This document shows positions 1,780 to 32,548 of a stretch of 64,000 nucleotides of DNA, piece after piece. This DNA is from Pseudovirgaria hyperparasitica. Lineage: Eukaryota. The DNA lies in assembly GCA_010093815.1 (NCBI GenBank), contig ML996581.1. One strand, 5' to 3'. A program made the position numbers and the translations under genes. Under the pieces are notes generated by a model that made no database searches, was not told the origin of the DNA, and saw only the letters and a program-made list of their open reading frames with translations. Position 1 is the first letter of the stretch; every line of letters starts with the position of its first letter.

Positions 1780-4215
1780 TACCTCGAGATGCTACGGGCC
1801 GTAGTCTCCTACTAATACTATAGTAGAAAGATTAGTAGTATATACTATATAATCCGTAGGTACTATAACTTAGAACTGTATAGACGAGTACGGCTTACTA
1901 TATTACTATTATTATTATAACTATTAGGCCCGTAGCTACTACTATTAACTAGGTTATAGTACGGCTTTAGTACTTATAGTTATATTAGTTAATAGAACTC
2001 TTTAGTTCGCTCTATTAGTATTTAGCCGTTAAGTATTAATTAGAAGTCTAAGTCTATAGAATTAGATATATCTACTACTAATACGGCTCTATATAAAGAT
2101 ACTACTATATTCTCTAATTCTATTTTAGACCTAGAATCTATAGATAGTATTACTAGTAGCTATAGTACCGATCTAGTATATTAGTCTAATATATATAGTA
2201 GAAATACTATATCTATAGTAATAAGGGCGTCTAGTACTATATATTTAATAAAAACGTTTGAAGAAGAGAGTAGTATATATATTATAGTAGACTAGAGTAG
2301 ACGTGATAATCCGTCTAATATAAGTATATATAGTCTAGATTTATAGTAGTAACTAATTTAGTAGGCCCGATTTAGTTAATTTAATAGTAAGTTTATAGAG
2401 CGCCTTATAATATAGATAAATTAGTTTAGTATTTCGAATATAGTATATAATAAATTAACTACTATCCTTAAATAGACTTCTACTATACCCTCTAACCTTT
2501 TTATACTAAAATCTAATATTATATATAAGTAGTTATTATACTACTCTAAAGGGATACTATACGAAAGTTAGTAGTATAGCTATAATATATCTAGTACTAC
2601 TATAGTTCAATACTAGTATAGAGATCCGCTTACGTTAGTAGAATTCCTTCTTAGATACTAACCGTTTACTAATAAGCTCGTGTTTAAGCTAGTACGATAA
2701 TTTACTAGTTTAGGCGACTAGGTATATAGTAAAGTCTATATAGTAGATAGTTAGTAGGATATATATACTACTATTCCGGATGGTACCGTTATCGTCTCTA
2801 TTATTTTATCTTTAGATAAGATAAACCTTACTAACTATAGTAGTAATAGAGTAGTATAGCTAGTCTATCTATCTATTTATAATCTACTACTAAACGTCCA
2901 CTTATCTAGGAGTCTACTATTATTTCTACTACTTACTCTATTACTAGTAGTTAAGCTAGAAATAATAGTAAATTACTTTATATTCTATTAGATTATAAGT
3001 AAAGTTCTAGCCTATATATCCGCCTATAATAGAGTTATTAACTATACTAATTATTATATAGCGTTATAGGCTATATAGAGTACTAGAGTATTAGTATTAT
3101 ATACTAATAGCGGCTTACGTAAGTACTATCCGCGTTTAGCTTTATATATTATAGATTTTCCGGAGTAGATACTTATCATAGGTATATCCCATTAGTATAT
3201 ATATCTAATATATATAGTCCCTAGTAATAGACGATAGTATCTATAAGAAGCCATTACTAGTATATAGAAGTTCTATATATACTCGTTATTATAGAAATAG
3301 ATTTACTATATATATCGCGAGTTAATAACTAATAGCTATAGTAGCAAGTATACTAGTAGTAAGATAGATAATAGAATAAGTATACCTAGTATCTTATTAT
3401 TTTCGTTAATGTCTTTCGCGCTAGTAGTATAGGGCTATTATATTCGCTAATTAGTTAAGAGTCGGTATTCTAGTAGATAGATAGAGCCATTAGATAATTT
3501 TACCTAGTTACTTACTAGAGTTAATATATACCGCGTGGTCGCTCCGGACATTCTATATTAACTATATAAGGGTATATTAGAATACACGTTTAATTAGATA
3601 GTCTTATATATTATTAATTAAGAGCGTACGGGATATAGATTAAAGGGTATATTTACTAGTATACCCCCTATAGAACGAGTAAAGAAGGTAATTAATAAGC
3701 GATTCGCGTCTATTAGGGTATTCGGTCGTTATAACCTACTTATATATATAACTTTAGTAATATAATAGACGGGGGCGATATTTAAGTATATACTAGTAGT
3801 GTTTATAGTTACGTTTAAACCGCTCCTATATTATAATCGATACTTTCTAAGCGTAGTACGGGCGGTTATTAATATATATATATTAGTAGTATACTATATA
3901 TATAATACGTAGATACTAGTATACTTAGAAGAGACTATATTACGCTTAGATAATCTAAAATACTAGTTTATACTATATCATAGAGATAAATCGAAGGATA
4001 ATTATTTTAACTTTCCGAAGTTCTATATATTATCGTACCTAGTTAATACTATTAAATACTATAGTTCGTTATATCTAATATTAGTAGAGCTACTAGAGTA
4101 ATCTTATATTATAGTAAAGAAATTATATTAAGGTTTAAATAAGAGGGAGACGTTTCTATAGTAGATACTAGTAGTAGATATACGCACGATAAATACTAAA
4201 ATCTCTAGTAGTATA
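1780..4215 (+). pseudogene. Plavaka-family transposase relic, segment 1 (start approximate)
   Basis: De-RIPed motifs IPDGTVIVPIILSSDKTNLTNHSGDRVAWPVYLSI (~2773-2880), DFPEQ (~3154), APDILHQLHKGV (~3541-3576) and NFNFPKFH (~4003-4026) match my recollection of the Plavaka transposase consensus. Many TAA/TAG stops. Confidence 0.75.
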
Positions 4216-7200
4216 ATAAGAATAATAATATTATATAACTAGATAGAGTAGTTTACTCTATAGGCGTATACCTTCTCTAGTCTAAGCTATTATATAAGAA
4301 GAAACCTTTATATAAGGAAAAACTCCCTTTTCTCTATAATTATATCTTATAAAACCTTTATATTATCTTAAGTATATAGCCGTTAGGTATACCTATAGGC
4401 CTATAATCTATAGTACCGTTATTTTACCCTTAGGTAGCATATATAGAGTACGGGGGTTATTAGTTAAGGGTTACCCTTAACTAATAATTAGGGTTCTCCC
4501 GGGGTTCTTCCGGCGTATACTAGAGTCTATCTAGTATATATCTAGTTACTTCTAGTATGTATATCTAGGTCTATTAGTATTAGGGGAGAGGGAGATATAT
4601 AAGTATCTACTAGGTAATCTTCTTAGAGTACTTATTAAGCTACTATATAATATTAGAGGTCCTTATTATATAGATAAGTAATTATCTCAATATATAAAGG
4701 TCCGGGTATATTATAAGATAGTACTATATTATATCTCTCTAGCCGTATACTTTATACTATAGAGACGTATCTAGAACGCCCCTCTAGTATAGGTAGTATA
4801 GAAGTTCTATAGCTTCTATTCGAGCTTAGAGAAGGATAGATACTTAGGCTTTTATAAGCCCCTTATATATCTATCTACTTAGCTCCTTCTATAATCTCTA
4901 AATCTATTCTAAATATCTATTCTATTAGAATGTCTAATAGGTCCGGAGGACTTCCTTCTATTTATTCTAGGTCTATAACTATATAGCCTATATAAGCTTC
5001 TAAGGGTTCTACTAGTCTAGAGAGGCGTCTAGGTTATCCCCGATCTCTTATATAATTTAGTTTAAGTCTATCTCTATTAGACTCTTATACTATAGTTAAT
5101 TCTAGCCTATATATAGTAGTACTTAATAGTAGGTACTAACTCATGTATATAGCGCGGTAAAGGTATATTCAGCGTATTCTACGCGTTTCTATACTTATTA
5201 TTTAGTAAAGTATATTACCCTCTATATCTAGTAGAAGTTATATATACTTATTATATTTATCTTGCGCTATAGTAGTACTATATTAGTAGTCTTATATATA
5301 CTAGAAATAGGACGGAGTATACGGTTCTATATAGACTTAAGCTTTATTTATCTAGTCTATATAAGAACTATATACTAGTACTTATGTCCGTACGTAAAGG
5401 CGGGTCGTACTATAGAGATATATAGTTAGCGTGTCTTATTCTAGGCGGTTCCCTATATAGAGGCCGTAATCTAGTATATAGCGGCTTCTACCTTAAGGGC
5501 CCTAGATACTATATATATAATCTATAGGCTCTATTTAAGTTTATTATTAATTATAATACCGAGTATATATATACTCTATATCGGTAGTTTAGTAAAAGTA
5601 TCTATTCTAGAACGTCGCTCTCCTTTCTTAGTAGCCTATTTTCTATAGTAGTTAATAAAGTATATAAGTTAGTATTTCTTAGAGGTGAACTTTACTCTAT
5701 AGCGCTTTACCTACTAGATATATCTCTTATAGTCTTATTTAAGGCGTTTATATATTAAACTAGTATTATTATTAATAGCTAGAAGGTATATATTATTAGC
5801 GTATCCTACTACCTCTATATATTATATTCTCTATAGAAGGTCTATAGTAAAGAAGAGAAAGAGAATTAGGGAGATAGTACTTTCTTATAGAATACTATAT
5901 ATTATCTTCTTATATTTACTTTAATATCTAGAGATATATATCTAGGTAATTCTTTCGGTAAGGAAGGACTATATAAACCTTATAATCTATTTAGGTATAC
6001 GTCTCTTCCGTAGGTTATAGATAAGTCTTATATAGTTTATCTTATTAAATACGCCGGCTATATTAAGGGAGAGTAATATTACTACGCGTCTCTATTTCTA
6101 TATAGTCTAGATAACTTTAAGGATATATTAGATAGCGGTAATTAGAGAGCTCCTAGTTTTTACCTTCTAATTCGCTAGAAGAAGGTTATATTCTTATACT
6201 ATAGTACTTATCTTCTTCGTAATTATAGTCTTAAGTATCTTACTAAGATAGAAGAGAAGAGTAATTAGTCTCTATCCTTTTAGGGAGTTAGAGTTCTTCC
6301 CTAGTTTTAGAAGTATAATAGTATAGACGGCCTAGAAGCTTTAGGGGTAGTATCTATTCTTAGTATATATCTAGAAGATAAGGCTAATAAGTAGTAGGGT
6401 TATCTATATAGTATATTTAAGGTATCTATTTAGTATTCTATCCGGTCCGGACGCTTTATTATTTAGAAGTACTCTAATAGTATTAAGAATCTTCTCTTCT
6501 ATAATCTCTATAGGGATATTAACCGTGTCTAGATATATATTATTATTAATATCTAATAGATCTACTAGCTCTAGGAGGGGAAATATAACTTCTTAGAGGA
6601 TCTCTATCTTTTTGGGGCTCGTGGTATATATTCTCCCCTAGTATATTAGGGAAGATATTAGTAGTAGTAGCGTCTACACGTCCGCGCTCTTAGCCTACTT
6701 TACTATATACTATAGCTCTATAGCCTATTATATATATTTATTAGTAATTATATACTAGTATTTACGTCATTTATTACGGAGGGTCTTATCTTAAGATTAG
6801 ATTACCTCTTTCTATTCCTTCTATATCTTAGTTATCTAGATATAGTATACACGTATATATAGTCTCCGGGCTACCCTTCTACTTTTATATATTTAAGGTA
6901 TACCCCTTACGTCTAGGGGCTTATATATTTAGTATAGTACGTGTTTATTTCTTAAGTTTTAGAAGGCTTAAAGAAGGACTTATATAGCTCTATCTATAGC
7001 CGGACTATTAGAGACATCGACTATAGAGGGGTCTAGAATTATTAATTCTAGGTCCTTTCTATACTTCTCCTAGTTAGTATCTTTCTATAGCTATCTCCCC
7101 TATTATTCGTTAGACGTAGATATATCTATTACGGTCTCTATATATTCGTAATTAGAGTCCGTTTACGTCTTACTAGGGCGGTAGTATTATACTCTATAGC

Positions 7201-9540
7201 TTATATATTCCGTGGTAAAGGTAAGGTCGAGTATAGATCCCTCCTTATCTTCCTTATATTTCCTCTATATAATTTATCCGACTAGCGTAAGGAGGTATAG
7301 AAGGTTATAGTACCTTATATATAGCTCCCTTACTCTAAGCTCTTCTCTAATAACTATCGGGCCTCTCTACTATCTATAGTAGAGGTTAAAGTTACCTAGA
7401 AGGATATATTATCCTAGTTCCGTGATGCCCTCTAGTATAGTATCTAGCGTAAGTAATCCTCTCTAGTTATAGATATTATAGATATAGAGGGGCCCTATAT
7501 CTATCTAGAGGTATAGTATTATCTAGAGATTATCTTATTCTATATAGAACTATTCTAAGAGCGGGATAGATTTATATATATAGAAGAGGACTCTCCTATC
7601 TAGGCCTAGGGGGTAGATAGTATAGTATTCTAGGTGTGTCGTTAGTTTATTAGTTTAGTAGTATTTATAAGGTTTCTAAATAGCTATTATTACGGTATCT
7701 ATCTCTTCTAGAAGCGTAGCCTGGTTTTCTTATTTATATTATATATTCGCCTATATAATAATAAGTATATCTTAACTCCTTATTAGGTGCTAGGGAATAC
7801 ATAAGTCTATATACTAGTAGTATTAAGGCGCGACTATCTCTATACGGTAGCTACCTTAAGGATACCCTAGGGTTATTCTATCTTTCTCTATATAGTATAC
7901 TATTATATATTAGTCTCTTCTCCTTATAGATTAGTTAGTATAGTTATAGATAAGGTTAGCGTAGATAGTAGGGGCCTCGTGGCTTAGTATATCTACCTCG
8001 CCCCTCTTACCTTTATAGCGTTAATATACTTAGTAACTTATCTATATTTTATATATATTACTAACTATAATAGGTAGTTTCTATTATAATTAGAGTACTT
8101 AGTAGTATCTTTATTACGTGTATAGTTCTCCTATTCTTTATATAGGTATTTCTAGATATAGTAGTTCTATTAGTACTATCCGTAGGTAGCTTTCTAAGAG
8201 TACCTCTATCTAGTATATCTATATCTCTAATAGTTAAAGTATTAGGTTATTATCTATACTCTATTCTATAGTTCCGCTATAAGTAACTCTCTCTTAGCTA
8301 AGAAGCCTTCTTATATAATCTAATAGACGAGAGTAGAGTCTTAGAGCTCTATTATTATAGTAGAGTATTTTTTTAATTTTACTTTAATCCCTTATATATT
8401 CTTCTACTATACCTTTATAATCTTAATCCCGGGGTATTTTCGGTTATTAGATTATTCTATTTACTTAATATTATTAGCGCTAATAATATATCCCTAGATA
8501 GGAACTATATATATCTATATTAGGTACGTGTTAGCGCGGACGGACGTACTAGAAAAGATATTATTAATCGCGTTCGGGTTATAGGAGATAGTCTACTAGG
8601 CTATATTAGTAGTAGTAGTTAGTACTATATCTCCTAGGGTAAGTTTAGCTATAACCATATTTAACTATATTTCTTTTTATTTATTAATCTTATTAATAAT
8701 ATTCTTTAGAGATACCTTCTAGATCTATATAAGGACTTCCTTATCCTAGATAATAATCCGTATACTATATACTTCTTCTATAGATATTCTTAGTATTTAG
8801 GTTATTCTAGTTATACTACCTAATGGTACCGCGACTTATACCTAAGTAGTTAGGCGTCTCTCCTAGGTAAGGCCTTCTTAGATTCTTAGTAGACTAGTCT
8901 TAATTTAGTCTAGCCTAGACTCCGGACTCGTTTCCGGTATCTATTTTACTTCTATAGTAAGCCTCTTAATATTCTAGACTAGACTTCGGAAGATATTAAG
9001 GAGGGTAGTCTCTTCTTTCTTAATCTCTCTCTCTATACGTGCTACCTAGTATTTAATCTTATCTATAAGGGTATCCGCAAGCGGAGTTCTCTCTATCTTA
9101 GTTATCTATAGTACTTTGCGCCTCTAGTTATTTTTTATTTTTTAGATAGTAGTTTAGTCATTCTAGAATATACCGCTATATAGCTATTTCTATTATACTA
9201 GTAGTAGGGGTATACCTAGCGGAAGTCGGGGTATATTAGTACCGGAAACTACTATAATTATTAGTTAAGGGCTACTCTTAACTAATAAAGGGGGTTAGTA
9301 TATTAGTATTTATTAGTAGTAGTCTATACTTATTACTCTAAAGAGTTTTTAAGTATATATATATAGTATCTCTATATATCGGTACTATCGCGTATTATAT
9401 ACTATATGTATATATATATATTGGAAGTTATTATACTTGGTATACTCTATTAATTAGTATCTATAGATCGCTATATCGCCCCGAATTAACTAGTTCTAGT
9501 CCCTTTAAGATTTATATATATAATAAAGATTATATCTATT
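4216..9540 (-). mobile_element. Full-length LINE (Tad1-like non-LTR retrotransposon), copy A
   Basis: Reverse complement aligns end to end with the + strand LINEs. (TAT)n-like tail at ~4216-4232. 15 bp TSD ATCTCTAGTAGTATA at 4201-4215 and 9541-9555. Confidence 0.93.
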
Positions 9541-10174
9541 ATCTCTAGTAGTATAGAGGTAGTAGCTAGTACTAGTATATTAGTAGCCTCTAGCCTAGAG
9601 TAGCTTAATAATATATATAAGCTAGTTAGCTAGCGGTATATTCTAAAGGAGCTATACTAGAGTAAATATATACTCTACGTCTTATAGAGCTATAGACTAT
9701 CTACGTTCTACTAGACTACTATTAGTAACCTCTATAATGTATATAGTAGTAGTTTTATATTACTTAATACGGTTATACCTTTTATATATAACTATTATAA
9801 TCGGCTTATCGGGGATAATATATCGAAAGATATAAATATTAAATATATTAAAAAGGATCCTTCGTGGGTATAGGTCCTTTCTATCTATATATATAAGACT
9901 ATATATATACTAATACGACTAGATAGAGATATATCTATAGAGGCCTTCGACCTAATTTAGGTAAGGTATACCTATAACTAGTAAAAGAGTAGTAAGGCTA
10001 GAGAGAATTATATAATAGTATAGGAGTTTAACGAGGGTAGTAACTACCTTAATAGAAAGCGGGTTAGTAAAGTCTATATATTTCTAGAGGTATACGATAT
10101 AGAGAGTATTAATATAACTAGTAGTATAGCGGCGCGATTTCTAGGTACATTAGTTAAACTACTTAATAACTTAG
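9541..10174 (+). pseudogene. Plavaka-like transposase relic, segment 2
   Basis: Resumes at the LINE TSD. Coding-like frame reads (de-RIPed) VRCTYNWQKSGKAREDYIMV...LNGKRVGKVHIF, resembling the Plavaka C-terminal region. Confidence 0.55.
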
Positions 10175-10414
10175 TATAAGGATTATAGACGTAGGATAGT
10201 AGTCTAACAGATTATAGAAGGATTCGGGAATATATTTAAAAGGGTAGTCTACTCTTCTAACGAGGTTAATTTCTAAAGAGTAGGAATTAAGTATATACGG
10301 CCTACTTATATAGTAGTCTCGCTTATTCTAGCTAGCTTACCCTAGGTCCACCTATTACGGACCGTACTAGACTATAGTATTCTAGTTAAGTCTATCCTAG
10401 TATTAGCCCTAATA
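10175..10414 (-). repeat. Gypsy 3' LTR
   Basis: Differs from 18552-18791 only by C/T and G/A transitions as far as I can see; adjacent to the PPT. Confidence 0.95.
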
Positions 10415-10901
10415 ATATTCTTCTTCTTTTTATGCTTCGCCCTAAAGTACTTAGCTATATATAAATCCGTAATTCTATAAGCGTTATATTTATATACGCA
10501 TCTAATTAAATCTATATAATATTATTAATAGTCTTTATATTAGTAAACTTAAGCTCTAGTTTACTTTTATTTATACACGCGCTTATCCCTTACTTTATAG
10601 CTACTACCTTAAAGGTAGCTCCGCGGGTTATATGACCGCTATATTAACTAAGCTTATATTTAGTTCTCTTATTCTGAATTTTCTTCTCTAGTATATCCAC
10701 CTTACTCTTAAGGTAAGTCGTTAATTCGTATACTATCTCCTTTAGTTTAGATCTATTCGGGTCTAGAGTAGTCTATTTTCGTTAGAGCTAGTTCTATATA
10801 ATCTATTCGCGTTATTACGGTTACTAATTTAGCTTCTTTAATTACCTTTAAGGCTAAACGAGTATTCTACTCTTAGATCTCTAGCTAACGTATATATATA
10901 G

Positions 10902-12207
10902 ATATCTAATACTAGTCCTATTTCTAAGCCTACCTCCTTCTCTCGTAAGACTCGCTCTAAAGAGATTACCTCTACCCCGGCTATACTAGCTAAAAAATCT
11001 ACTTATTATAGTAGTATAAAGGCGCGCTCTAAGTTAGAGAAGAAGATAGCTAAGGCTACTACTACTATTACTACTAACGTAGCTACTAGTCGCTCTAATC
11101 TAGGTAATCCTAGTACTAGTGTTACGGAAGAGGTAGCTATAAAGCCTACCTACACCTACTCGCGCCGTCTATCTACTCTACCTTCTTTAGAGGATAAAGA
11201 AGATCTCGTCGTAGATAATAATCGAGAGTTTATACCTTCGCCGCCTTACTCTAAATACTATTCCTCTTTTCAGTCTAATATAGACCGACTTAGTCGCTCT
11301 AGATTCTTTTAGGACCTTAATATTTACTCTAAACCTAGCCCTAGTAATAATAAGGCCTAGGTCGCCGAAGATACTAAACGTAGTTACGGTTTACGCTATA
11401 GAAAAACGGCGAACTATAGTTTAATATACTTTAAGTATATTAAGGCTTATACTACCGGCTCTAAATATCTCTTCCGCTCTAACTCTAGTATTAGCTACTA
11501 CTCTACTAACCGCGACGGGCCTATATATCTAATCTTTAAGCTCTCTACCCGCTACCGCCGCTATACCGTCCTTAGTAAAGTTTATCTTTAGGTAAGTCTA
11601 TTAGGCTATTTTAGTCTAGAGTAATCTAAAGTTATCCATGCTAATACGTTTTTAGGTTTCTATTTATATATAAGATATATATAACGATCTTCGCGTCCAT
11701 GAGACTCTTAGTAGTTCTAGTAGTTATCTAGCTTCTATACGTAGGGAGTTTAGAGAGCGCTATAAGCTCTTTCTAGAGGTTATTAAAGTATAAGTTTAGA
11801 AACCGTTAATTATTATTAACCTTAGCTTATAATTTTCAGTCGCCGCGAGATTCCTAGCGCTTAGGCTATCTATTCTAGGGAGTTGGTTTTAGCTACTAAG
11901 GCCGTAGAAGAGATTCGTGCTATTCCTTCTTATCCGCCTTATACTACTAACGGGTCTTATAAGAGATCTACTAGTTCTCCTTCTAAGTTACCTCGTAAGA
12001 GGGTATATATTCTATTCTAGATTATTCTAGACCGCGTTAGCTAACTTTAGGTCTAGTCGCTCTACTCTAGCGCTTAGTTATTATCTTACTAGGCTCTAAC
12101 TAAGCGCGTGGTTACTCTAGAGGATAAGGTCTCTAACCTCCGTTACTCTATTACTCGGTTAGTTCGTTTACTACGCTCTAAGAGTAATAATAAGATAGAG
12201 GAGTAGC
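10902..12207 (+). pseudogene. Spliced antisense gene inside the Gypsy element (Ser/Thr/Pro-rich N-terminus, Cys-rich domain, C-terminal heptad segment)
   Basis: Continuous coding-like frame. Introns at 10713-10901 (GTAAGT..GCTAAC..TAG, upstream of the inferred ATG), 11592-11655 (GTAAGT..GCTAAT..TAG) and probably 11788-11839 (..TTTCAG). De-RIPed CFKC...TRCRRCTVLGKVC at ~11427-11590. Confidence 0.65.
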
Positions 12208-12457
12208 TCTATGGCTCTATTTACTAGGGTTTCTATATGGTATGTGTTGGCTCTATCTACCTGGTTTCTATCCGTTTTAGTCCTTTTTAGACCGTTTAGA
12301 TACCTATCTACTAGTTTTCTAGTAATTTAATTCTTAACTTAATAATATTATATACGTTCTTATTTATTCTATAACTATTAAATTTTAGGTTCTAATTTCC
12401 TTTAAGTTACTTAAGTATAGGCATCGTATATAAATTAGTTTATCTCTCTAAATTATA

Positions 12458-12557
12458 TTAGAGTACCCGAACCAGTGGCCTAGTAGTTATTAGTTCGGGT
12501 ACTCTAACCTTTTATATTATATGTCACGAGTTTAATTCCGTAGTAGGGTACCTTTTT
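12458..12557 (+). ncRNA. Putative Pol III (tRNA-type promoter) hairpin RNA unit within the Gypsy 3' region
   Basis: TATATAAA at 12427. 17 bp inverted arms at 12458-12474 and 12491-12507 enclose an A-box-like TGGCCTAGT(A/G)G. B-box-like GAGTTTAATTCC (de-RIP GAGTTCRATTCC) at 12528-12539. T5 at 12553-12557. Confidence 0.5.
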
Positions 12558-15500
12558 AGTTTCTTAGTCCTATGTTCTTCTCATATATAATAGTCTATAT
12601 TAGTCTATTCTAGACTTCTCTATATTATTCTATTATAATATATTACGTCGTATGCCTATAACGATTATTTACGTTTTCTTCGCGTTTAGTAACCGTGTAT
12701 CGCTTGAATTATAGGGCTATCTTATAGAGTTTTCCTAGTGTACGTTTAGAATTCGTGATTTAATACTTCGTTCTCTATAGTATCCTTCTTCTTTTTATAA
12801 CGGCCCTAATAGTACTAGGTTTACGGTAGTAATATGTTATTCTATAACCTCTATTTATATATAGCTATCGCGGTACTTAAGATATGTACCGTAGGTTTCT
12901 AGGTGTTCTTATCCTTAGTATAGTTCTTCTAACGAATTTAATACTTTTAGATACCGTTCTCGTTAAGCCTATGTTCGATAATATAGTCTACTTTATATAC
13001 GTCTAGTCTATCTTAGAGTATAATAGAGTGTAATTACACGTTCGTGCGTTTATATATATTAGGTCGAAACCTTTTAAGTAATAAGACGTAGAATATGTTA
13101 TGGACTTTTATATTATTTTCTAGGTTAAGCTTATAGACTCTTATACTAATACGACGTTTAATTCGGAAGGGACTAGCTATTTTATAATCGAGCTTTTTAT
13201 TTACTCGCGATGTTTATATATTACGGACGTTAAGAAGGACTTTATCTCTCTCCTTATACGCTTAATCTTTAACTAATCTATTATAGTACTTTATATACGA
13301 CTTATTCACTTACTAGATTATTACGCGATAGTTACGTGCGGTTTTAAAGATTTTAATTGCTAGTTCCTACGCGTGGACGTTAACATCTATCGTTCGGTTA
13401 AACTAGACCGTATAAGGTTCGAAACCTATCCTTAGACTATATTCTAGGTTCGCCTAGAAGGGCGTAATACCTATTATACTATAACGACTATTATTATATA
13501 TGAATTCTACTATACTTAGTAGAGAGGCCTAGTCGTCTTATTTGAAATTATAGAATGCACGAAGGTAGGCCTCGAGTATTTAGTTCTATCGCTCTATCTA
13601 ACTATCTATTTATAGATAGAATGCTATTAATATGTTTCTATTTATACCGGCTATTTTATAGAATAACGTCTAGAATTTAGACGTGAATATACTCCCTCGG
13701 TCTATAACGATCCTTTTTAGTATACTATAGACCTTAATAATCTTATTCTAGAATACTTATACTAGTTCTTTTAATGTGATTATCTTCTACATAGGGACGT
13801 ACCTAGATATCTTTATAAGTCTATCCACGATAATAAGAATTAAATTATAACTCATTCTAAGTATCTTACTTAGAGGTAAGTTAACTATAAAATCTATAGT
13901 AATATCTTCCTATATAAAGAGGGGGACTAGTAGAGACTATAAGTTCCTATATAGCTTATGCCTAGGTGCCTTTATTCTTTAATAAATTAGATAAGTAGCT
14001 ATCTATTCTTCGATATACTTAGGTATATCTTCCTAAAATTAGTACTAATAAATTAAGCTTAGGGTGCGTATATACCCGAAATGTTCTACTAGGTTAGCGT
14101 TATAGTATCGGCTAACTATAGTAAATCGTACGTTATCTATTAGTATATAGTACTTTCTATTATAGTAGAGTAAGCCATCCACGAAGGTCTACTTATAGTC
14201 TACTTCGGTCCGTAATAACCTATCTTACTATATTTTACGTAACTTTAAAACTATCGGGTCTATCTTTTATAGATCCACGATTAACTAGGCGAGGTCTACT
14301 TAATATACACGCCGGGTACTATCGCCCTCCCTAATAGCGCCGATAAATGGCTCGCTAGAGACTTCGGTACCGTGTCTTTAGTTACCGGCTTTAGTCTTAT
14401 AAATTTAATTACCAGCATCAGCGTTAGCATCTCGCTAATCGTCGGATAACTTATTATCTAACCTCGTCCTTAAGAGTTAGGCCTATAGCTACTCTAGGAC
14501 CCTATAGCTACTATAATCCTAGGCGCCTTCTTTATAGTTAGGTCTTCTTAATATTCTATTAGCTAGGTTTATACTTCTAGATCGATGGTAGATTATAAAG
14601 TAGAAATTTATAAGCTACTTAGCCTATCGAACCTATTAACGATTTAAAACTATTATACTTATAAACCCCTTTAAGTTATAGTAATTAGTTAGTAACTTAA
14701 TATTATATATAGTACCTTTAAGATAATATCGCTACTACTTAAACGACTCTACTATTACTAGTAGCTCTTGGTTATAAATAGTATATCTAGTCTTAACGTT
14801 AGCTATCTTACGCAAGAAGAACGTAACTAGATACTATTAGACCTTTTTAGACTCTATTAGTCTAGGCTAGGAGAGTATACCCGAGATTATAAATTCTAAT
14901 ATATTAGTTTCGACGTAAATAGGTTTAGTTAGATCGAAGTACACTAGTAATAGAGCGGTTATAAATGCTTCTTTAATCTTCTTAAAGGATATTCTTTTAA
15001 CCTTAGTTAATTTAATAGATTATAATTTAATATTATACTATTTCTATCTACCACGGACCGTAATAGATAAGTCGGTAGTAGTAGTATATATATTAAGTAG
15101 TGCGGCTAAATAGGAGAAGTATTTAATAAATTTTTAGTAGTAGTTAGCGAAGCTAATAAAGACACGTATATCTTAAACGGATTTTAGTTTAGGCTAGTCT
15201 ATAATAGTAGTAACTCTATCTCTCTCTATGGTTATACCTTAATTAGTAATAATAAAGCTAAGAAAGTTAATATAGTTCTAATGGAACTTATATTTAGATA
15301 GCTTAATATATAGCTTATACTTTTCTAGCCTATCTAGGACTATATATACGTGCTAGATATACTCCTCCTCGTTATCTAAGAAGATAAGGATGTTATCTAG
15401 GTACACGATATATATCGTATTAAGTAGGCCTACTAGTACGTTATTAATATACGCTTAGAAGGTGCCTAGTACGTTAGTTAGTCTAAAAGGAACTATAGTA

Positions 15501-15846
15501 TACTTAAAGTATCTATAACGGGTCCTAAAAGCCGTTTTCTATTCGTCGCCTTCCTTAATATAAAGGCGATAGTAGACGTTACGTAGATCGAGCTTAGTAA
15601 AGATCTTTACGCGTTCTAGTCTATTAATAGACTCGGAGATAAAAGGTAGTAGATAATAATTCTTTCGCGTAATATTATTTAGACTATAGTAGTTAATATA
15701 TAGACGGAGGCTCCTATCCTTCTTCTTTATAAAGAGAATTAGAGCTCCGGCTAGAGATATACTAGGCCTAATCTATTCTCGCGTAAGGTTCTTTTTAATA
15801 TATTCTCGAAGGGCTTATAACTTAGATTCTAAAAGAGGGTAGATAG

Positions 15847-16447
15847 TGTTAGGCACGTAAGGAGCACGTGGCCTGCCAGTTAATTATACATGTGTGTAGT
15901 AGTCGTATATAAGTAGTATACTCCACCCTTAAAGTAGTAGCTTCAAGATTCGGTCCTTTTAGTATAGTTGGTTAGTGTGTGGAGCCCGCCTCCTTATATA
16001 ATCTTAAAGCTACTACGGGGTCACGGGTTCAACTCTCGGTCTAGTCAACCGTTATTAAATTTCGCACGATTCCGTTTAGCTTGCCACGTTACGTGTCCTT
16101 TAAGCACGTGACGGATAACATGGTAGTAACATTACTATGGTAAGTTAGTGTGTCTGGTGCTAGAGGCGGTATTACGAGTATTGGTTATGTGTGTACATGG
16201 TTTATACTAGGCCCGTTACGGCTAGTTTAGTTTATCTTTCGTAAGGTAGTATACCCACGACGTGTAAGGATACGCGCCTTTGAAAAGGGGGATAATATTA
16301 GGCACGTGAGGAGCACGTGGCCTACTAGTTAATTATACATGTATGTAGTAGTTGTATATAAGTAGTGTACTCCACCCTTAAAGTAGTAGCTTCAAGATTC
16401 GGTCCTTTTGGTGTAGTTGGTTAGTGCGTGGAGCCCGCCTCCTTATA
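15847..16447 (+). mobile_element. TRIM (601 bp non-autonomous LTR element), copy 1, inserted in Gypsy pol
   Basis: 152 bp LTRs at 15847-15998 and 16296-16447, starting TG. PPT GAAAAGGGGGATAA at 16282-16295. 5 bp TSD GATAG at 15842-15846 and 16448-16452. No ORF. Confidence 0.95.
15960..16036 (+). promoter_or_regulatory. tRNA-type Pol III internal promoter of the TRIM: A box in LTR U5, B box in internal region
   Basis: A box TGGTGTAGTTGG (intact in the 3' LTR at 16409-16420, RIPed at 15960-15971). B box GGTTCAACTC at 16026-16035. Upstream TATATAAG at ~15906. Confidence 0.65.
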
Positions 16448-18551
16448 GATAGGTTCATATAGAGGTTACTAGCCGTCTTCGAGATTAATAGTAAGGTTAG
16501 TAGATTAGTATTAAGGTAGTTTAGAGGAATCGATCGCTAACACGATATATTAGTATATTTTATACTAATATAGTAGGTTTTCGTCTACTTTAATACTAAG
16601 CTCGCTATTTTACGTGAGTAAGAGTATATAGATAGTAGAGATCGCCTTCTTATAATCCTTCTAGAATTATTTATTCTCGATAAGCTATACTAGTTTCTAT
16701 TAAGGTAGGTTTATACGCTAGCTAGCTATCTTCTTAAGGAAGTCTAGTTTTAGGTTATATTTCTTAAGCTATAGTATACCTAGAATTATATTAAAGGGAC
16801 TATCTACCACGATAAAGGTTAAGTAGTAGAGTTTCTATTTCCCTCCGCTATCCTAGATACCGTATTTAATAGTATAGATACTATATAACTTAATAGAACC
16901 GTCGATACTATGGAACATAGCACCTATTAGAGCTTAGATATCGGCGTTAAGTTCTCGTGCTCGTTAGGTTAATATAACGTTAGTAGCCGACCTACTATTA
17001 AGTATTATAGTTTAATATTATCTACGAGGGACCTTAATAGGTCTAGTCTATAGTTTAATATACTATTTAGCGGATTACCCCTCTATTATAGTCGCGTCTA
17101 TAAGTCGCGAGGGTTTCTCGTAGACTATTAGTTTTTTATATTCTATACTAGGTAGTTAGGCGCGATATGTTCTAGCTACTAGCACTTATAGTATATAACT
17201 AGTTAGTTAGTTATATTAGTACTTAGTAGCTTCCCTAAACGGTACTTAGATACTATATAGTCTATTCTACTATAGGTATAGTAAGTAACTTTAGGTCGTT
17301 TATACGAGTCGGTCCTTATATCTTAATATATTAATTAGTAGGGAGATCCACGATACGATCCGCGTGGTTTTAAATTTAAGGCGTGGTAGTAGCCTTATAA
17401 CGTCCCGCGAGATCTATTACTAAATCGGTTTTAGTTAGATAATTTTACGTTAGATTAGATTATTAGGGATAGTTATACACTAGCGCGGTGTTAATTATTT
17501 ATTATATACTAGTATCGCTCCGCGAGGTTTATAAGAGCTTAGAGGTCTATAGAGATTATCGTTATAAGGTTAAAACGGTCCTTTATATTTAGGGTAAGAG
17601 ACCGTTTAAAGTCGTTATACTATCGAATTATATAATCTTCTTCGGCTTCTCTCTAGAGGGGCCGAAGGTATTTAAGGAGTTATAACGGTAACTAATTATC
17701 TCGTTATCGAGTCTTAAAGATATGGCCCTAGGCCTAGTTACGTTGTTTAGCTCTATCGCTAAAATATTAGAGGAGAAATTCGGTAAACATGTCCTAGTTA
17801 TAGGCATCCTTAGAATATTCGATTTAGTATACTATCTAACGTTCTAAAGGCGTCGGGTTAAGGTAGTTCTAGGCGAATCTAATTTTATTACTATCGTTCG
17901 TAAATAGATAGAAGAATCGGCTATATTAGTAAGCCTATACGTGGAAACTCTTTCTACTTTTACTATTAAAGTAAGGTGGTTTCTTAGGTCGGGGTAATTA
18001 GGATAGTAGTAGACTAGAATGGATCGTTTTAGTTGGTATAGGTCTATATAAATATAGATTAGTCGTTGCTAGAACTAAAGCGTATAATATAGCTTTAAGT
18101 CTCGTAGTACGTCCTTAAGCTTTATTAAGTTTACGTAGTTATTACTCGAGTTAAACCTATCGTTACCTCTCTTTATATAGTCTAGTATATACGTCGTTAT
18201 AAGGTGTAGTTAATATTAGGCGATTCTAACGGATTAACTCATTAACGTTAATAAGGTCTAGCCTTATATTAAGGTTAGGTCTAGTATAGTTTAAACTAGA
18301 CCGAGATAGAGTATAATAGACTCTATCCTCGTATTCTATAATATCTTCTATAGTTATACGGAATATTATACGAGTTATTAGTACGATAGTCTATAAGGTA
18401 TAATTATCGGTAGGGGTAGTTATAGGTAGACTATTCTTCTTATTTAGGTTAGGAGAAGGTCTACTATAAGAGGCGGTACCACGAGTATTATAATAAGTGG
18501 TTAGAGCCGTTTCTATGAACTACTATCGTGCTATATAAAGAGAAATTAAAA

Positions 18552-18791
18552 TATAAGGATTATAGACGTAGGATAGTAGTCTAATAGATCATAGGAGGAT
18601 TCGGGAATATATTTAAAAGGGTAGTCTACTCTTCTAACGAGGTTAATTTCTAAAGAGTAGGAATTAAGTGTGTGCGGCCTACTTATATAGTAGTCTCGCT
18701 TATTCTAGCTAGCTTACCCTAGGTCCACCTGTTACGGACCGTACTAGACCATAGTATTCTAGTTAAGTCTATCCTAGTATCAGCCCTAACA
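18552..18791 (-). repeat. Gypsy 5' LTR
   Basis: Ends ...TAACA at 18791 (TG on minus strand) and is followed by the TSD. Confidence 0.95.
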
Positions 18792-19050
18792 CTTAGATAG
18801 AGGTAATATTAATACTATTAGTAGCCTTATACTATTATATATAGCGGGTTAAAGGTCTAGTAATAAGACTTATATAATAGATAGGTTCCGTGTCTATAAG
18901 CTAGAGCATATCCTACGCCCTATATAGATTATATTATATTAGTTAGTTATAGATAGTTTATTCTAGTTAAATACGTATAGTAATTAGGGGATCTATAACG
19001 AGGTATATAATCTAGACTTCTAGGCTATAAATAGATAAAACGTAACTATA
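18792..19050 (+). pseudogene. Plavaka-like transposase relic, segment 3 (C-terminus; end approximate)
   Basis: Continues after the Gypsy TSD. Reads FRVYKLEHILRP.QI, similar to the family's C-terminal motif. Confidence 0.4.
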
Positions 19051-19655: not shown

Positions 19656-19925
19656 CTTACTAGAGAAACGTCTTCCTTAAGTATCTCCCCCTTCTAATAT
19701 TTCTTCTTCTCTTTCTTTATTCTTTCTCTAGCCTTATAAGTATAGTTAGACTTATATTACTATATTATCGATATATACATTCTTATATAGACCGTTAGAA
19801 ACTATGGTAACTAGATATACATTCTTATAATAGATAAATATACCGTACTAATACGTTGCATTATTCGTGTTTAATATAAGGGTTTACTACTATAATTATT
19901 CGTTGTTACGCTTATCTATCTCTTC

Positions 19926-19997
19926 TTAATAATAGTACTAATTAATAATAACCTATTATAGAGATAATAGGTTATTATTAATTAGTACTATTATTAA
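19926..19997. repeat. Perfect 72 bp hairpin (34 bp arms, 4 nt loop)
   Basis: TTAATAATAGTACTAATTAATAATAACCTATTAT-AGAG-exact reverse complement. Confidence 0.95.
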
Positions 19998-23143: not shown

Positions 23144-24267
23144 AAATATAACTACTATCTTAACTAATAATAAACCACTTATCTTTAGTATACTTACCGG
23201 TAACTACTATTCTAATAATAAGTATAAACTTAAGAAGGTCTAAAGTAGTAAGGCTCCTGTTTCTACTTACGCTATCTATTAGATCTCTCTTATATAGAGT
23301 AATCTATAGTTAATCTTTAGGAATGTCTATAGTATTAGTAGAGAAATAGATAGACTTAAGTAGAAATAAGTGAAAACTTAAGCTAAGCTTAAGCTAGTAG
23401 TATTTAAGGCTCGTGGTAAAGGTTATAGCTTTAAAGAGTCGATTAGTTATATATATAGATTCCTTAAATTCCCTAAGTACTACTCTTAGATTAAGTTATA
23501 TACTCGCTTCTAATAGATTAATAAAGGGAAATTAGTATCCTTAATAAGCTTACTCCGCTTTAATTATACTAATATCCTTCTATTATCCGACTACCCTACG
23601 GTATAGATCTTTAAGATTAAGTAAGTAGATAACTTTATTAAGTATTTTTCTAAACTTTCTAATCTTATTATAAGCGAAGTAGATAAAGCTAATATACTAT
23701 ATACTAATACCGGTCTCTATAAAGACCCTTATAACTTTTAGATTATTAAACTTATAGCTAGTAAGCTTCTTAGTATAGGTTTTACTATCCCGTTATATAT
23801 TAGATCTAATATAATATATAAATAAGTAAAGTAATTCTTTTAAGATCTAGATACTTATACTATAGTTTATATCTTACTACCGCTATGTAACTCTATAGAT
23901 CTTACTAGCTTTAATAATAAGCTTAAACTAGAGAGCGATCCGATTAATTTATAGTATATAGAAGTTACTACTCCCTATATATAATATAGTATAGAGAAAA
24001 AAAACTTCTTACACCCCAACGGACCAAACTAGTCAATTCGGGGTAAAACAGCGATTTACATATATTAAATAATAGAGTATACCGAGTATAATAACCTCCG
24101 ATACACGTGCGTACGTATAGCGTATAATACGCGACGATACCGACGTATAGAGACACTATATATATACGCTTAAAGACTCTTCGATAACACGAGTATAGAC
24201 TATATCTAATAAACGCCGACACGCCGACCCCCTTTTATTAGTTAAGGGCTACCCTTAACTAATAACC

Positions 24268-25719
24268 ATGGCGGCCTTAGGCATCGTAACACCCCGGTAT
24301 ACACCGGATATACCCCTACTAGTATAGTAGAAACGGCCATATAGCGATATTAATATAGATAGCTAGACACCTATCTAAAATATAGGAACTAACTAAGGGT
24401 ATAAAGCGCTATAGATAACCTAGACTAAGGGGACCCCGAGAGGGGAGACCCTCCTAGATAAAATTAAATACTAGGTAATACGTGTAGAGAGGGACGCTAA
24501 GGAGGGAAAGAAGACCCTTCTTTATATATTCCGGGACCTTATCTAGAACCTAAGAGAAATCACGGAGAAAGAAAGGAAGTCGCCACGAGAGGAACCTAGT
24601 AGTAGGCTTGACCGAATAGAAGCTAGCCTACGGAGAATCTAGGAAGAGCTATCCTAAGGTAAGCGCCCTAATACGTGGGCTTAGATTATAGTAACACCCG
24701 GAGCCACCGTACTAAGAACTACTAGAACTATAGATAGAGTATATAGTATACGTATCGTAATCTAGGATAAGAACACGCTAGCGTAGATCTAATAGGCATC
24801 CCTAAAGGAAATTATAAATAAGATTAATGAATAGAAAGGAATGTAGTTGAGCGTCGTGGCTACTAAAGTTACGCTAGGTAGGGTAGTACTTACTACTATA
24901 ACGAATACTACGTAGTAAAACATCTTATAAGATCCGAATATAATAGGTAGTATCTTCCCTAGCGCGTCTATTAGAGTAGCCATATACCCGATTATAGTAT
25001 ATATAGTATCCGTGCGGGGATAGGCTATCGGAGCGGAGAATATTACGCGTATAGAATAATCTAATACGCGAAAATACCTAGGGATTAAGATCGTGAAAGC
25101 GTGGTAGAAGAACCTATAGGCGATTAAGACGACGGTAAAAAAACACTCTACTATAATTATAGAGCTCCGAGACCCCGCCCTCGTATAACGCATTATATAG
25201 AAGGGATTCCTAATAGAAGGAGAGCTTCTTATAGCCGAGCTATAGAATAGGATATAGGTAATAATATAGTGCTTTAACTATTAAGGGTATAGATATACTA
25301 TATAAAGGTACTTATAGAAGACTAAGTGCGGATAGTACCGTAGGGACCATGCTACCTAGAAGTGCCCTTATGAACCGCGAGGAGACGGACCAAGAAATAG
25401 GGATATAGTATAGTATTTAAACTACGACGGGAAACACCCGTCGTGGTCGTTAACGTGTATAAAACGTAAATAGATTATAGAATATATTTATATAATAAAA
25501 GCGAGAGACGCGAGATAGTTATAGAATATAACACCTATTATAAGCCCTTCCTTTATAATATCCCTAATCTCCTCTCCGGAAGGTAGTTAGGTAGGATAGT
25601 AGACTATCCTAAAGACGATAGGACGACTAAAAGGTATAGTTAAAGCCGCTACCGCGTGAGGACAGTCGCGCCTCTAAGGAATAAGTATATAGGTATATAT
25701 ATTCTCTAGTATCTAATAA
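24268..25719 (+). pseudogene. LINE ORF1 (gag-like, CCHC knuckles)
   Basis: ATG at 24268; 484 codons in frame to a TAA that overlaps the ORF2 start; de-RIPed CFNCQGYGH (~25270). Confidence 0.85.
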
Positions 25720-28700
25720 GGGACTAGAATATACTCCGAATTATATAGGTAAACGTATAATATAAAAGAGAGAACTAGGCGACGCTCCTTAAAGAGACCG
25801 GGGCCATAATACTCGCCATCTAGGAACCCTATAAACACTACTAGACGAGTAAACCAACCACACACCCCGGATACCATACTATATACCCTCTAGGACTAGA
25901 AAGACGAGTCCTCTTCTACATTTATAGGTTAATACTACTCTTATTATAGTCGTATACTAAGCGCGATAACCTTAGGATAATACTACACCTATAAATAGAT
26001 ATAGGCCCTCTATATATATATAATATATATAACTAATAACGTGTACTTATACTAGACGAGATACTCGAGGGTACCACGGAACTAGGGTAATACATCCTCC
26101 TAGAAGACTTTAACCTCTACTACTAATAGTAGGGAGGCCTAGCCATGGTTAGGGAAGAACTTAGAGTAAGGGAACTACGTACCCGCTACTACGACTTCCT
26201 ATACCTACTTATACCTATAGAATAAGTTATATAGAAAAAACATAAATAGGATAAAGACGGGTCTATACTTAACCTTACCTTCGCCACGGAGTATATTAGT
26301 TACTAGATCTAATACTACCGCCTAGGCTAGGTATAGACGGATTCTAACCACGAATACATGGAAACCATAATAAACGTATATACCCCGAATGAATAACGGG
26401 GACGATAGATATAGAAGGATACTAACTAGGAAAAGTACCTAAAGGACCTGGAATCGGCGATCCTAGATCCCTCTATAGTTAATATATCTAACGACCTAGC
26501 TATAGACCAGGCCGTATAGATACTCCTATAAATATATTAGAATACGAGAAATAAACACGTACTATACTAAATATACCGGCCCCTAGAAGTAAAGGGGATT
26601 CCTTAAGTACGGGAAAGTAGATAAGACGCCTAAAGGCTATATACACGCGTATACCGTACGAGAACACCTAAGTCGTAGAAAGAATAGAAGGAAGTAATAT
26701 AATAATACGATAAAGTCCTCCGTAACGAAAGGCGTAAATAGTAGTATATAATTACTAGTTAATAGACACGATACGTAATAGGGCTATAGCGTATAGCGAA
26801 ATAGGCTAAGGGCGTAGACACTCCGACACCCCCGCTACTTATGCCTCCCCTAATATATTAGAGGAGAATATACTCTATAAGCCTTAAGAAAACTAAGGCC
26901 CTACGGGAGGCTATATTCCCTCTCCTAGAACTAGTAGACCTATTAGACGTTCACGGCGCTAAATATCTATACACGGTAGACATCCCCGAAGAAGTTACGG
27001 AGGAGGATATACTTAATATTATTAAGATACTCCTAAATGATAAAGCACCTAGACTAGATAGAATTCTAAATCGATACCTAAAAAGCACTATAAAAGCGAC
27101 CCTACCGCTTATTACTCGTATATTCTAAGCATACGTCACGTAGGGGTACCACCCCTAGAGCTTCCGAGTCGTCTATACTATTATACTCCTAAAACTAGGA
27201 AAGAGCCCTAACTCTCTAAAGGGATAGAGACTAATCGCCCTTCTCTCCTACCTAGGTAAGATACTAGAGGCTATGATAGCGAAGAAGATAAGTACCGCGG
27301 TATAGAAATATAATCTCCTCTCTCCGAACTAGAAGGTAAAGATAGATAGCTCCCTAATAATAGCTATCTAATATATTATTAAAGTCGTCTAGGCCGTATA
27401 GAAATAGGGACGGGTAGTATCGCTTCTCTCCCTCGATATGGCCGGAGCGTTTAATAAGGTAAACCATATAAGACTTATTTATAACCTCTAGATAAGACGA
27501 ATACTAGAATGGATTATACGCTTTATATAGTCATTCCTCATAGGAAGAATAACTTAGATATATATCCCTAGGTACTAGAGCGAATATAAAGAGACGGCAT
27601 ACGGCATCCCATAAGGGAGCACCATCTCTCTAATCCTATTCCTCTTCTTTATAGTAGATCTTCTTTAAGGAATAAAGTATATAGAGGTAGTCGGATACGC
27701 CGATAATATATACCTCCTAGCTATTAATAATAATACCAACCGAACGTATAGACGACTAGAATAGAACTATAAGAGGTGCCTCTAGTAGGTAAAACGCTAT
27801 AGAGTAAAGTTCGCCCTGGAGAAATACCAGCTCATGCACTTTATTAATCGTTAAGGGAAATAGGTAACTAGGGAAGGCGAATAACGCCCCCGAATCGACG
27901 CATTTAACGAACTACTAGTATAAAGTATACGCGCGCTTAGAGTCATACTAGATGGCAAGCTTAAATAGGGACCATAAGTAGCATACGCCGTCTCTAGGGC
28001 CCTCTAGGTAGAAGCCGCTATATAACGGATTATAGCCTCCACGTAGGGAACCGCCCGGGATAAGGCACGCTAGCTATATATATCTATGGCACGACCCGCC
28101 TTCACGTACGGATATAAGTGCTAGTATATAGCCCTTATATAGACTAGGCGAATAAAGCTCGAATCTATATAGAACCGTATACTCCGTCTTATATTAGGCG
28201 TATATAAAGCTACTAACACGGTGCTACTATAACGCGAGACAGACGTTATAAGTATATATAACTTCTACTAGATATAGAGGGTAGTATACTTTACTAAATA
28301 ATAAGCATAGGAACGCATAGGAAACGTAGAATATACTTTCGCCGCGCTACGTGCACGAATTAGCATATATTACCGCGTACTCCTATATATAGGCTAGAAT
28401 CGAATACGGTATAGGTGCTTAATAGAAGCCGACTCTAGCTAAGTAGTATAAGAAGTCCGAGATAACCCGGACGCTCTCCTAGACTAGTAGAGCCTTTAAG
28501 AACTTATGAAAAATATACGGTCGTGGACTTAAGATAAGTAGAAAGAGGCACTCTATGCCTACTAGACCTCCTAGTAGAATAGGTACCTAGAGTGGATTTA
28601 AGGGCTATAGAAGGAACCGAGTAAATAGATATATAAAGGGCTAACGAAAGCCTAAGTATCTATACTTATCTAAGCCCGAACGGGCGCCATGGGACTTCTA

Positions 28701-29039
28701 TACTATATCTATAAGAGAGGCGTTCCCGATACCTCCCTATAGTGTAAGGCGTGCGGTCGGAGAGGTATAATACGCTACTATCTAGCTATATACCCTAACC
28801 TCTATATATAACGGTAATGGCTTATCCACGTTACGAAGACTTTAGATATCGTATAATAGCTTAATAAGTACCCTAAGGACGTCTCCCGATAGATGCTTAT
28901 ATATCTACTACTCCTCTAGTACTAGTGGACCCGGAAATATATACCGGAAGAGACCTAGTATACGCCGGTAGTAACCTAATATATACCGGAAGAACCCCGG
29001 GAGAACCCCGATTATTAGTTAAGGGTAGCCCTTAACTAA
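25716..29039 (+). pseudogene. LINE ORF2 (AP endonuclease, reverse transcriptase, C-terminal Zn motif)
   Basis: AIQEP, GDFN-like and SDH-like endonuclease motifs; PQGS-like and GYAD(D) RT motifs (~27693); CKAC..H....C (~28743). 1108 codons in one frame. Confidence 0.9.
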
Positions 29040-31947: not shown

Positions 31948-32548
31948 TATAAGGAGGCAGGCTCCACGTACCAACCAACTATACTAAAAGGACCGAATCT
32001 TAAAGCTACTACTTCAAGGGTGGAGTACACTACTTATATACGACTACTATACATATGTAGAATTAACTGGTAGGCCACGTGCTCCTTATGTACCTAATAT
32101 TATCTCCCTTCTCGAAGGCGCGTGTCCTTACGCGTCGTAGGTATACTACCTTACGAAAGATAAACTAAACTAGCCGTAACGGGCCTAGTATAAACGATGT
32201 ATACATATAACTAATACTCGTAATGCCGCCTCTAGCACTAGATACGCTAACTTACCATAGTAACGTTACTACCATGTTATCCGTCACGTGTATAAAGTAT
32301 ATATAATATGGTAAGCTAAACGAAATCGTGCGAAATTTAATAACGGTTAACTAGACCGAGAGTTAAACCCGTAACCCCGTAGTAGCTTTAAGATTATATA
32401 AGGAGGCGGGCTCCACGCACTAACTAACTATACTAAAAGAACCGAATCTTAAAGCTACTACTTCAAGGGTGGAGTACACTACTTATATACGACTACTATA
32501 TACATGTAGAATCAACTAGTAGGCTACGTGCTCCTTACGTGCCTAATA
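31948..32548 (-). mobile_element. TRIM copy 2 (601 bp), inserted in helicase motif VI
   Basis: Reverse complement of 15847-16447. LTRs at 31948-32099 and 32397-32548. 5 bp TSD CTATT at 31943-31947 and 32549-32553. Confidence 0.95.

Follow-up and report, generated by a model that had tools for sequence, protein, structure and literature searches.

The 64,000-nt stretch of Pseudovirgaria hyperparasitica DNA analysed here (GCA_010093815.1, contig ML996581.1; hereafter the window) carries two copies of a 601-bp terminal-repeat retrotransposon in miniature (TRIM) that appears to encode its own primer. Each long terminal repeat (LTR) contains a 17-nt segment, and the sequence at the primer-binding site (PBS) just inside the 5' LTR is the reverse complement of that segment. 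A self-priming layout like that of the fission yeast element Tf1 is well supported by this arrangement. Taken as a whole, the element is probably best explained as a self-priming, high-copy TRIM, for which transcription by RNA polymerase II (Pol II) is favoured over transcription by Pol III.

The element has the features by which TRIMs are recognized: short direct LTRs, a total length below ~1 kb, a lack of coding sequence, a site at the PBS position, a polypurine tract and a 5-bp target-site duplication (Table 1). No open reading frame (ORF) of at least 40 aa occurs anywhere in 15847-16447. An earlier note on this DNA had described two 601-bp copies with 152-bp LTRs, a polypurine tract and differing 5-bp duplications, and all of these are borne out in the sequence. 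The two copies are 90.5% identical over 599 nt, LTR-to-LTR identity is 93-94%, and the alignment of the four LTRs has a mean column identity of 95%. The polypurine tract of copy 2 reads GAGAAGGGAGATAA.

Logan contigs from four public runs of the same organism (X1-X4) were aligned onto 15800-16500. The contig pieces that fall on the TRIM number 1448 in X1 and 764 in X2, and the differences among them are nearly all transitions; further genomic copies found in this way have an LTR that begins TGTCAGG and finishes in CA. One X2 contig is an empty site: it connects 15839 to 16446, omitting 606 bases (601 + 5), and is a paralogous copy of the surrounding repeat without the TRIM. Given its structure, the differing target-site duplications, the empty site and the many copies in the runs, the element is a real, mobile, high-copy TRIM. 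A tRNA-derived short interspersed nuclear element (SINE) was considered and ruled out by the LTRs, the polypurine tract and the 5-bp duplication. In runs X3 and X4, which derive from a second sample, a contig spans 15998-16365 with ~10% difference, and upstream of 15998 it runs into the start of a read at a PstI site (CTGCAGGTG) instead of the LTR end; it may represent a truncated copy or a subfamily with a different LTR end. A metagenome search with two degenerate patterns, one spanning the PBS and leader and the other the primer and U5, matched 0 stretches.

The host fungus has a genome with strong repeat-induced point mutation (RIP), and this shapes how the sequence can be read. The window is AT-rich (33% G+C), no ORF of at least 150 aa occurs across its 64 kb, and its RIP signature is extreme (TpA/ApT of 1.66 and (CpA+TpG)/(ApC+GpT) of 0.16). 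The two TRIM copies show 58 differences, of which 53 are transitions, 36 of them in a clean CpA/TpG context.

The evidence for self-priming lies in the 17-nt complementarity. As the earlier note had claimed, the complement of an LTR segment is present just after the 5' LTR in both copies: copy 2 pairs at 17/17 positions and copy 1, with a single C:A mismatch, at 16/17. The boundaries of complementarity are exact (15934/16016 and 15950/16000). The PBS had been described as beginning AATCTT(G/A). The A holds for both window copies and the G is found in neither, so that a G at this variable place can only be presumed. Inverted repeats of this kind (17 nt, at most one mismatch, 20-120-nt loop) are found in the window only at the two TRIM copies and in two unrelated palindrome regions. 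The latter are long AT-rich palindromes or inverted repeats at ~19925-19990 and 40282-40420.

The position of the primer segment also fits. It starts 27 nt after the first T of the TATATAAG TATA box (15907), in agreement with the transcript start near 15934 that had been predicted. The PBS region begins with T followed by AATCTT..., without TGG, which excludes complementarity to a tRNA 3' end. Nor can the 17-mer form the anticodon arm of a tRNA, because the bases that follow it in the LTR do not pair back. A tRNA-primed PBS was rejected on these two grounds, and the tRNA-independent, Tf1-type layout proposed earlier is upheld, with a PBS that matches the element's own LTR. In both copies, the minimum-energy and centroid folds join the primer and PBS arms, and the fold of copy 2 is better than those of shuffled sequences (z = -2.8). 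The centroid fold also contains a small U5 hairpin before the PBS, GGAG-CCCGC-CTCC, a possible counterpart of the U5-IR stem-loop with a putative function. Another kind of hairpin site was sought and rejected. At the conserved site of fungal Copia-type GalEa elements there is, directly after the LTR, a 9-mer of the CTGATCAGT or CTAATTAGT type with a downstream inverted partner, as these motifs are given in PMC5445492. This motif is absent from the TRIM, in which the sequence directly after the LTR is TAATCTTAAAGC.

In Tf1, the RNA's first 11 bases anneal to the PBS and RNase H cleaves between bases 11 and 12, as described in PMC7175516. The same self-priming mechanism is described for Tj1 (PMC4600332) and is given for many fungal gypsy elements (PMC6934838). 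The RNA of the TRIM would most likely start at ~15934, downstream of the TATA box of the 5' LTR, and its first 17 nt would fold back onto the complementary site one base past the LTR. A helper RNase H would then cut at the end of the duplex, and the released 17-mer would prime minus-strand DNA, as in Tf1, so that a tRNA primer would not be needed. Reverse transcriptase, RNase H and integrase would be supplied in trans by a Ty3/gypsy element.

A candidate for such a helper surrounds copy 1, which is inserted just upstream of the reverse transcriptase domain of an 8.6-kb Ty3/gypsy element. Pfam searches of the gypsy read-through, with X at stops, recovered RVT_1 (3e-17), RT_RNaseH_2 (4e-13), SH3_Tf2-1 (3e-10) and RT_RNaseH. 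The LTR ends of the gypsy element and the TRIM are alike (the first 7 bases are TGTTAGG, and the last 8 are TCCTTATA, plus a T after them), and the 11-mer around the TATA box, TATATAAGTAG, is common to both LTRs. Because the LTR tips and the 5-bp duplication are held in common with the TRIM, the gypsy element is a candidate for the helper lineage. We regard a helper lineage with common integrase end sites as plausible, with the gypsy element as a putative partner. The sequence after the gypsy LTR has no TGG-type PBS, and a 9-nt complement between 18541-18549 and the LTR segment at 18643-18651, which begins 38 nt past the TATATAAG of that LTR, is a possible self-primer. The TRIM LTR and the internal region were each tested for homology with the surrounding gypsy element, and homology was rejected, as the LTR tips alone agree; for the internal region, 47/100 shuffles scored as high, or 9/100 with RIP-tolerant scoring.

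So, which polymerase would transcribe the TRIM? Pol II is favoured because U3 contains a TATA box together with paired CACGTG boxes. The TATATAAGTAG TATA context also occurs in the autonomous 8-kb gypsy element, which must use Pol II, and so also points to Pol II. The TATA box, the two CACGTG boxes and a TTTT run 24 nt past the predicted start are no less consistent with a Pol II promoter than with a Pol III one. Although the first CACGTG box is mutated in the 5' LTR of copy 1, both boxes are unmutated in the 3' LTR (16303-16308 and 16314-16319). CACGTG sites are concentrated in the TRIM: 6 of the 13 in the window fall within 1.2 kb of TRIM sequence, where shuffles lead one to expect 0.17. They are located at 15854-15870, 16105-16110, 16303-16319, 32076-32081 and 32285-32290, and they persist despite the two RIP target dinucleotides in each motif. 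On these promoter motifs, we consider Pol II transcription of the TRIM probable and Pol III transcription through the A/B-box-like pair unlikely.

The earlier note had proposed that Pol III transcribes the element from a split tRNA-type promoter, with an A box in the LTR (R/U5) and a B box past the PBS. The element would still be self-primed, and activity would be confined to a 5' LTR that adjoins the internal region. We regard this as a minority prospect. The consensus sequences of the A and B boxes are TRGCNNAGTGG and GGTTCGANTCC. Of the claimed LTR A box, an exact copy (TGGTGTAGTTGG) stands in the 3' LTR of copy 1 (16409-16420), but the other three LTRs carry only G-to-A variants. Similarly, the claimed B box is present in copy 1 as GGTTCAACTC, preceded by GGGGTCA and set within a T-arm-like stem of 4 of 5 pairs, but the same position in copy 2 reads GGTTTAACTC. 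The statement that the 3' LTR lacks a B box agrees with our motif scan, which found no B-box match after it. An A-like motif followed by a B box at 30-110 nt is found once in the window versus 0.02 expected (at least one in 4/200 shuffles), and the two boxes start 66 nt apart, a distance in the range of working tRNA genes. The B-box pattern by itself is rare in the window (2 seen versus 0.6 expected), but matches to the loose A-box pattern taken alone are about as many as chance predicts (33 versus 26). Further against Pol III, the C at 16030 in the B box is T in 94% of the read depth of the run contigs, possibly through RIP, so the ancestral state of the box rests on a minority. The acceptor stem is absent and the D stem is poor, with one G-C pair and three G-T pairs. 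The TTTT run lies 24-27 nt past the proposed start and upstream of the A-like box in both LTRs, and no run of at least 5 T, which could terminate the transcript, occurs anywhere in the TRIM. The 601-bp length would suit Pol III, and TRIMs with tRNA-like Pol III promoters exist, as described for Helenus (PMC10886601). Nor is a TATA box incompatible with Pol III, since the fission yeast Pol III genes drawn in PMC4600332 have TATA boxes upstream.

Searches for tRNAs bear on both the Pol III proposal and its opposite, that the tRNA-like motifs are without function. ARAGORN found no tRNA at default settings. At an 80% threshold it called a 'tRNA-Ile' at 15966-16046, in a register unlike that of the earlier note, and these calls are noise, because there are 51 of them in the window versus a mean of 38 in 30 shuffles. 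Rfam searches, run at the gathering score and also with E relaxed to 10, on pieces of 701, 131, 50 and 45 nt, returned neither a tRNA nor a 5S match. Their sole matches were miRNA-hairpin models, attracted by the inverted repeat (MIR172 at 20.5 bits), and a weak Tymo_tRNA-like match to the T-arm-like stretch at 16020-16046 (9.5 bits, E 2.5). A custom tRNA covariance model, built from 136 distinct tRNAs of five jumbo-phage records and run on both strands with filters off, gave as its top match in the window 16402-16471, on the 3' LTR of copy 1, the least mutated of the LTRs. This match places U8 at 16409, in the A-box register, but scores only 9.8 bits (E = 2). At the 5' junction, the model aligned positions 8-65 and placed the D loop and T arm, treating 34 nt, PBS included, as an insert, but with a score of 3.3 bits, and on copy 2 it aligned nothing sensible. 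A tRNA-derived origin in a consistent register is possible on this model, at scores that are statistically non-significant. With null results from ARAGORN and Rfam and model scores of this size, the claim of Pol III transcription is unsupported.

The tRNA-like motifs may instead be a dead relic or a product of chance within a TRIM that is an ordinary Pol II element. They could have been left by an old SINE of tRNA origin or a tRNA fragment at the LTR/leader junction, or they could reflect RIP-shaped TA/GT-rich sequence. This is close to an even prospect, and it is compatible with a self-priming, Pol II-transcribed TRIM, from which it differs only in denying the motifs a role. It agrees with the failure of every standard tRNA finder and with the commonness of A-like motifs in the RIP-shaped window. 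A 22-nt internal stretch at 16132-16153 is 82% identical to the A-box-like LTR stretch at 15959-15980; the likeness may be due to duplication or to RIP, and it suggests an effect of composition. Chance, however, sits uneasily with the joint occurrence of the A and B boxes, given its expectation of 0.02 per window, and with the agreement of an independent tRNA model on their register at two places. A quite different possibility is that an RNA of the host, for instance a small RNA such as a tRNA fragment, primes at the 17-nt site and that the LTR match is secondary. Fungal Helenus and Copia elements do use internal regions of tRNAs as primers, according to PMC10886601. In the TRIM, however, the complement lies in its own LTR, exactly at the start that the TATA box would be expected to direct, the 17-mer cannot form an anticodon arm, and the tRNA model aligns nothing to the primer segment (15934-15950) or the PBS (16000-16016). 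Priming by a host RNA therefore seems very improbable.

Several observations weigh against our preferred reading of a self-priming, Pol II-transcribed TRIM served by a gypsy helper. The start site, the RNase H cut, the helper and the polymerase are all things that we infer. A TATA-assisted type 2 Pol III promoter would also fit, with the TATA box at -27, the A-like box at +27 and the B-like box at +93, and the top-ranked match of the tRNA model in the window is a TRIM LTR. The fold of copy 1 is no better than those of shuffled sequences (z = -0.66, with 43/200 shuffles equal). Paired C-to-T and G-to-A changes in the duplex of copy 2 look compensatory, but we rejected them as a sign of selection on the duplex, because RIP mutates CpA/TpG in both arms of an inverted repeat alike. 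As for the helper, the overall similarity of the TRIM and gypsy LTRs is not above chance (205/500 shuffles are as high), and TATATAAGTAG is found 10 times in the window versus 2.8 expected; the link to the gypsy element therefore depends on the 16 terminal bases. The 9-nt complement of the gypsy element is AT-rich and could be due to chance, and SH3_Tf2-1 is not specific to the Tf1/sushi clade. The full-length comparison comprises two copies only, and the runs supplied variant tables.

Table 1. Coordinates of the TRIM copies, their sequence features and the surrounding Ty3/gypsy element in the window
Feature	Position	Strand	Remarks
TRIM copy 1	15847-16447	+	601 bp
5' LTR of copy 1	15847-15998	+	152 bp
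3' LTR of copy 1	16296-16447	+	152 bp
Target-site duplication of copy 1, GATAG	15842-15846 and 16448-16452	.	perfect, 5 bp
Internal region of copy 1	15999-16295	+	297 bp; no ORF of at least 40 aa
Two CACGTG-type boxes, U3 of 5' LTR	15854-15870	+	first one mutated to CACGTA
TATA box TATATAAG	15907-15914	+	invariant in 4/4 LTRs
Self-primer segment GTAGTAGCTTCAAGATT	15934-15950	+	predicted transcript 5' end, start of R; recurs at 16383-16399
TTTT run	15957-15960, again 16406-16409	+	only sense-strand run of at least 4 T in the TRIM
A-box-like motif	15960-15971	+	mutated to TAGTATAGTTGG; tRNA model positions 8-19
Hairpin GGAG-CCCGC-CTCC in U5	15981-15993	+	six bases before the PBS; in centroid fold
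PBS AATCTTAAAGCTACTAC	16000-16016	+	one base past the 5' LTR; reverse complement of 15934-15950
T-arm-like stretch	16020-16046	+	contains B-box-like GGTTCAACTC at 16026-16035
Polypurine tract GAAAAGGGGGATAA, copy 1	16282-16295	+	ends right before the 3' LTR
TRIM copy 2	31948-32548	-	601 bp; 5' LTR 32397-32548, PBS 32379-32395, 3' LTR 31948-32099
Target-site duplication of copy 2, CTATT	31943-31947 and 32549-32553	.	perfect, 5 bp
Ty3/gypsy LTR retrotransposon	10175-18791	-	8.6 kb, RIP-degraded; hosts TRIM copy 1
Gypsy LTRs, 240 bp	10175-10414 and 18552-18791	-	96% identical over 238 aligned bases
Gypsy target-site duplication, CTTAG	10170-10174 and 18792-18796	.	5 bp
Gypsy pol remnants	~13067-15730	-	Pfam

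Other repeats also lie in the window. A 5.3-kb non-LTR retrotransposon, in which Pfam detects RVT_1 (4e-13) and, weakly, Exo_endo_phos_2, is present in five or six copies, partly in tandem, at 4213-9505, 24018-29280, 41042-46330 and 50532-63989, with a copy-to-copy identity of 70-93%. Ten N at 55536-55545 separate two 3.1-kb stretches (52433-55535 and 55546-58648) that are 99.97% identical, and probably mark an assembly gap within a tandem repeat. A tandem array at 36164-37281 comprises 4.8 copies of a 234-bp unit with 92% matches.

TRIMs rank with the most active repeats of plant-associated ascomycetes affected by RIP, as reported in PMC8549362. How they are primed and transcribed has rarely been worked out. 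For a TRIM with its own primer, a helper would have to supply only reverse transcriptase, RNase H and integrase, which may explain how so short an element attains a very high copy number. That an ascomycete TRIM is both self-primed and transcribed by Pol III from a TATA-assisted, split tRNA-type promoter is a doubtful proposition on the motifs at hand, and the split promoter should be regarded as an attractive but weakly supported extra. Should it prove true, transcription would be limited to an intact junction of 5' LTR and leader, and neither solo LTRs nor 3' LTRs would be active. TRIMp3-like elements would then gain their first member beyond basidiomycete fungi, animals and Selaginella, and also their first to have a split promoter and to dispense with a tRNA primer. 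Small-RNA-promoter TRIMs would thereby be extended to Ascomycota, with a simple means of silencing solo LTRs.

How does the element compare with known systems? A full-text search of the literature, with Repbase and Dfam outside its reach, returned self-primed TRIMs in passing mentions and no description of one. RLX_TRIM_Sinope of Parastagonospora nodorum is likewise a short, non-coding, high-copy LTR element of a RIP-affected Dothideomycete; it is a catalogue entry, for which the relevant passages of PMC8549362 give neither priming nor promoter, and the comparison is by description only. Cassandra and Ajax are also small LTR elements for which a Pol III promoter of small-RNA origin has been proposed or shown, but their promoters derive from 5S rRNA, for which Rfam gave no match in the TRIM described here.

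Helenus (TRIMp3; Kojima 2024, PMC10886601) is the nearest catalogued kind, and it differs in every defining point tested. As described there, it is also a fungal TRIM with LTRs, a PBS, a polypurine tract, a 5-bp duplication and tRNA-like A-box and B-box motifs near the LTR. However, the whole tRNA-like unit of Helenus (A and B boxes) lies inside the LTR and is in many cases called by tRNAscan-SE (PMC10886601), whereas the B-like box of the TRIM (16026-16035) lies outside the LTR, past the PBS, and no tRNA finder calls it. Likewise, the PBSs of Helenus match anticodon loops or 3' ends of tRNAs, and its LTR tRNA-like sequence and PBS are stated in the same paper not to be complementary, whereas the PBS of the TRIM matches its own LTR. 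The two architectures are close but not identical, with the tRNA unit inside the LTR and tRNA primers on the Helenus side. Fungal Helenus elements are known only from Pucciniales and a few Agaricomycetes, all basidiomycetes, and are linked to Copia, according to PMC10886601. The TRIM 11-mers GCTTCAAGATT (primer segment) and AATCTTGAAGC (PBS, with the presumed G) are absent from the supplementary Helenus sequences of that paper. The Puccinia elements Helenus-1_PHord-I and Helenus-1_PHor-I have several B-box-like repeats of the GGGTTCAA type in their internal portion, downstream of the PBS, besides the tRNA-like unit in the LTR, so the TRIM described here is not alone in having a B-like box outside the LTR.

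In its priming, the TRIM instead resembles Tf1-type elements. They have a PBS complementary to the 5' end of their own RNA, which for the TRIM is a predicted end, and in common with it a TATA box at the right distance upstream, no complement to a tRNA 3' end, a 5-bp target-site duplication and a fungal host. The predicted duplex is 17 bp long in the TRIM and 11 bp in Tf1, as given in PMC7175516. Tf1-type elements are autonomous, at least 5 kb long and encode Gag and Pol, whereas the TRIM combines what appears to be the same priming layout with a non-coding sequence of only 601 bp.

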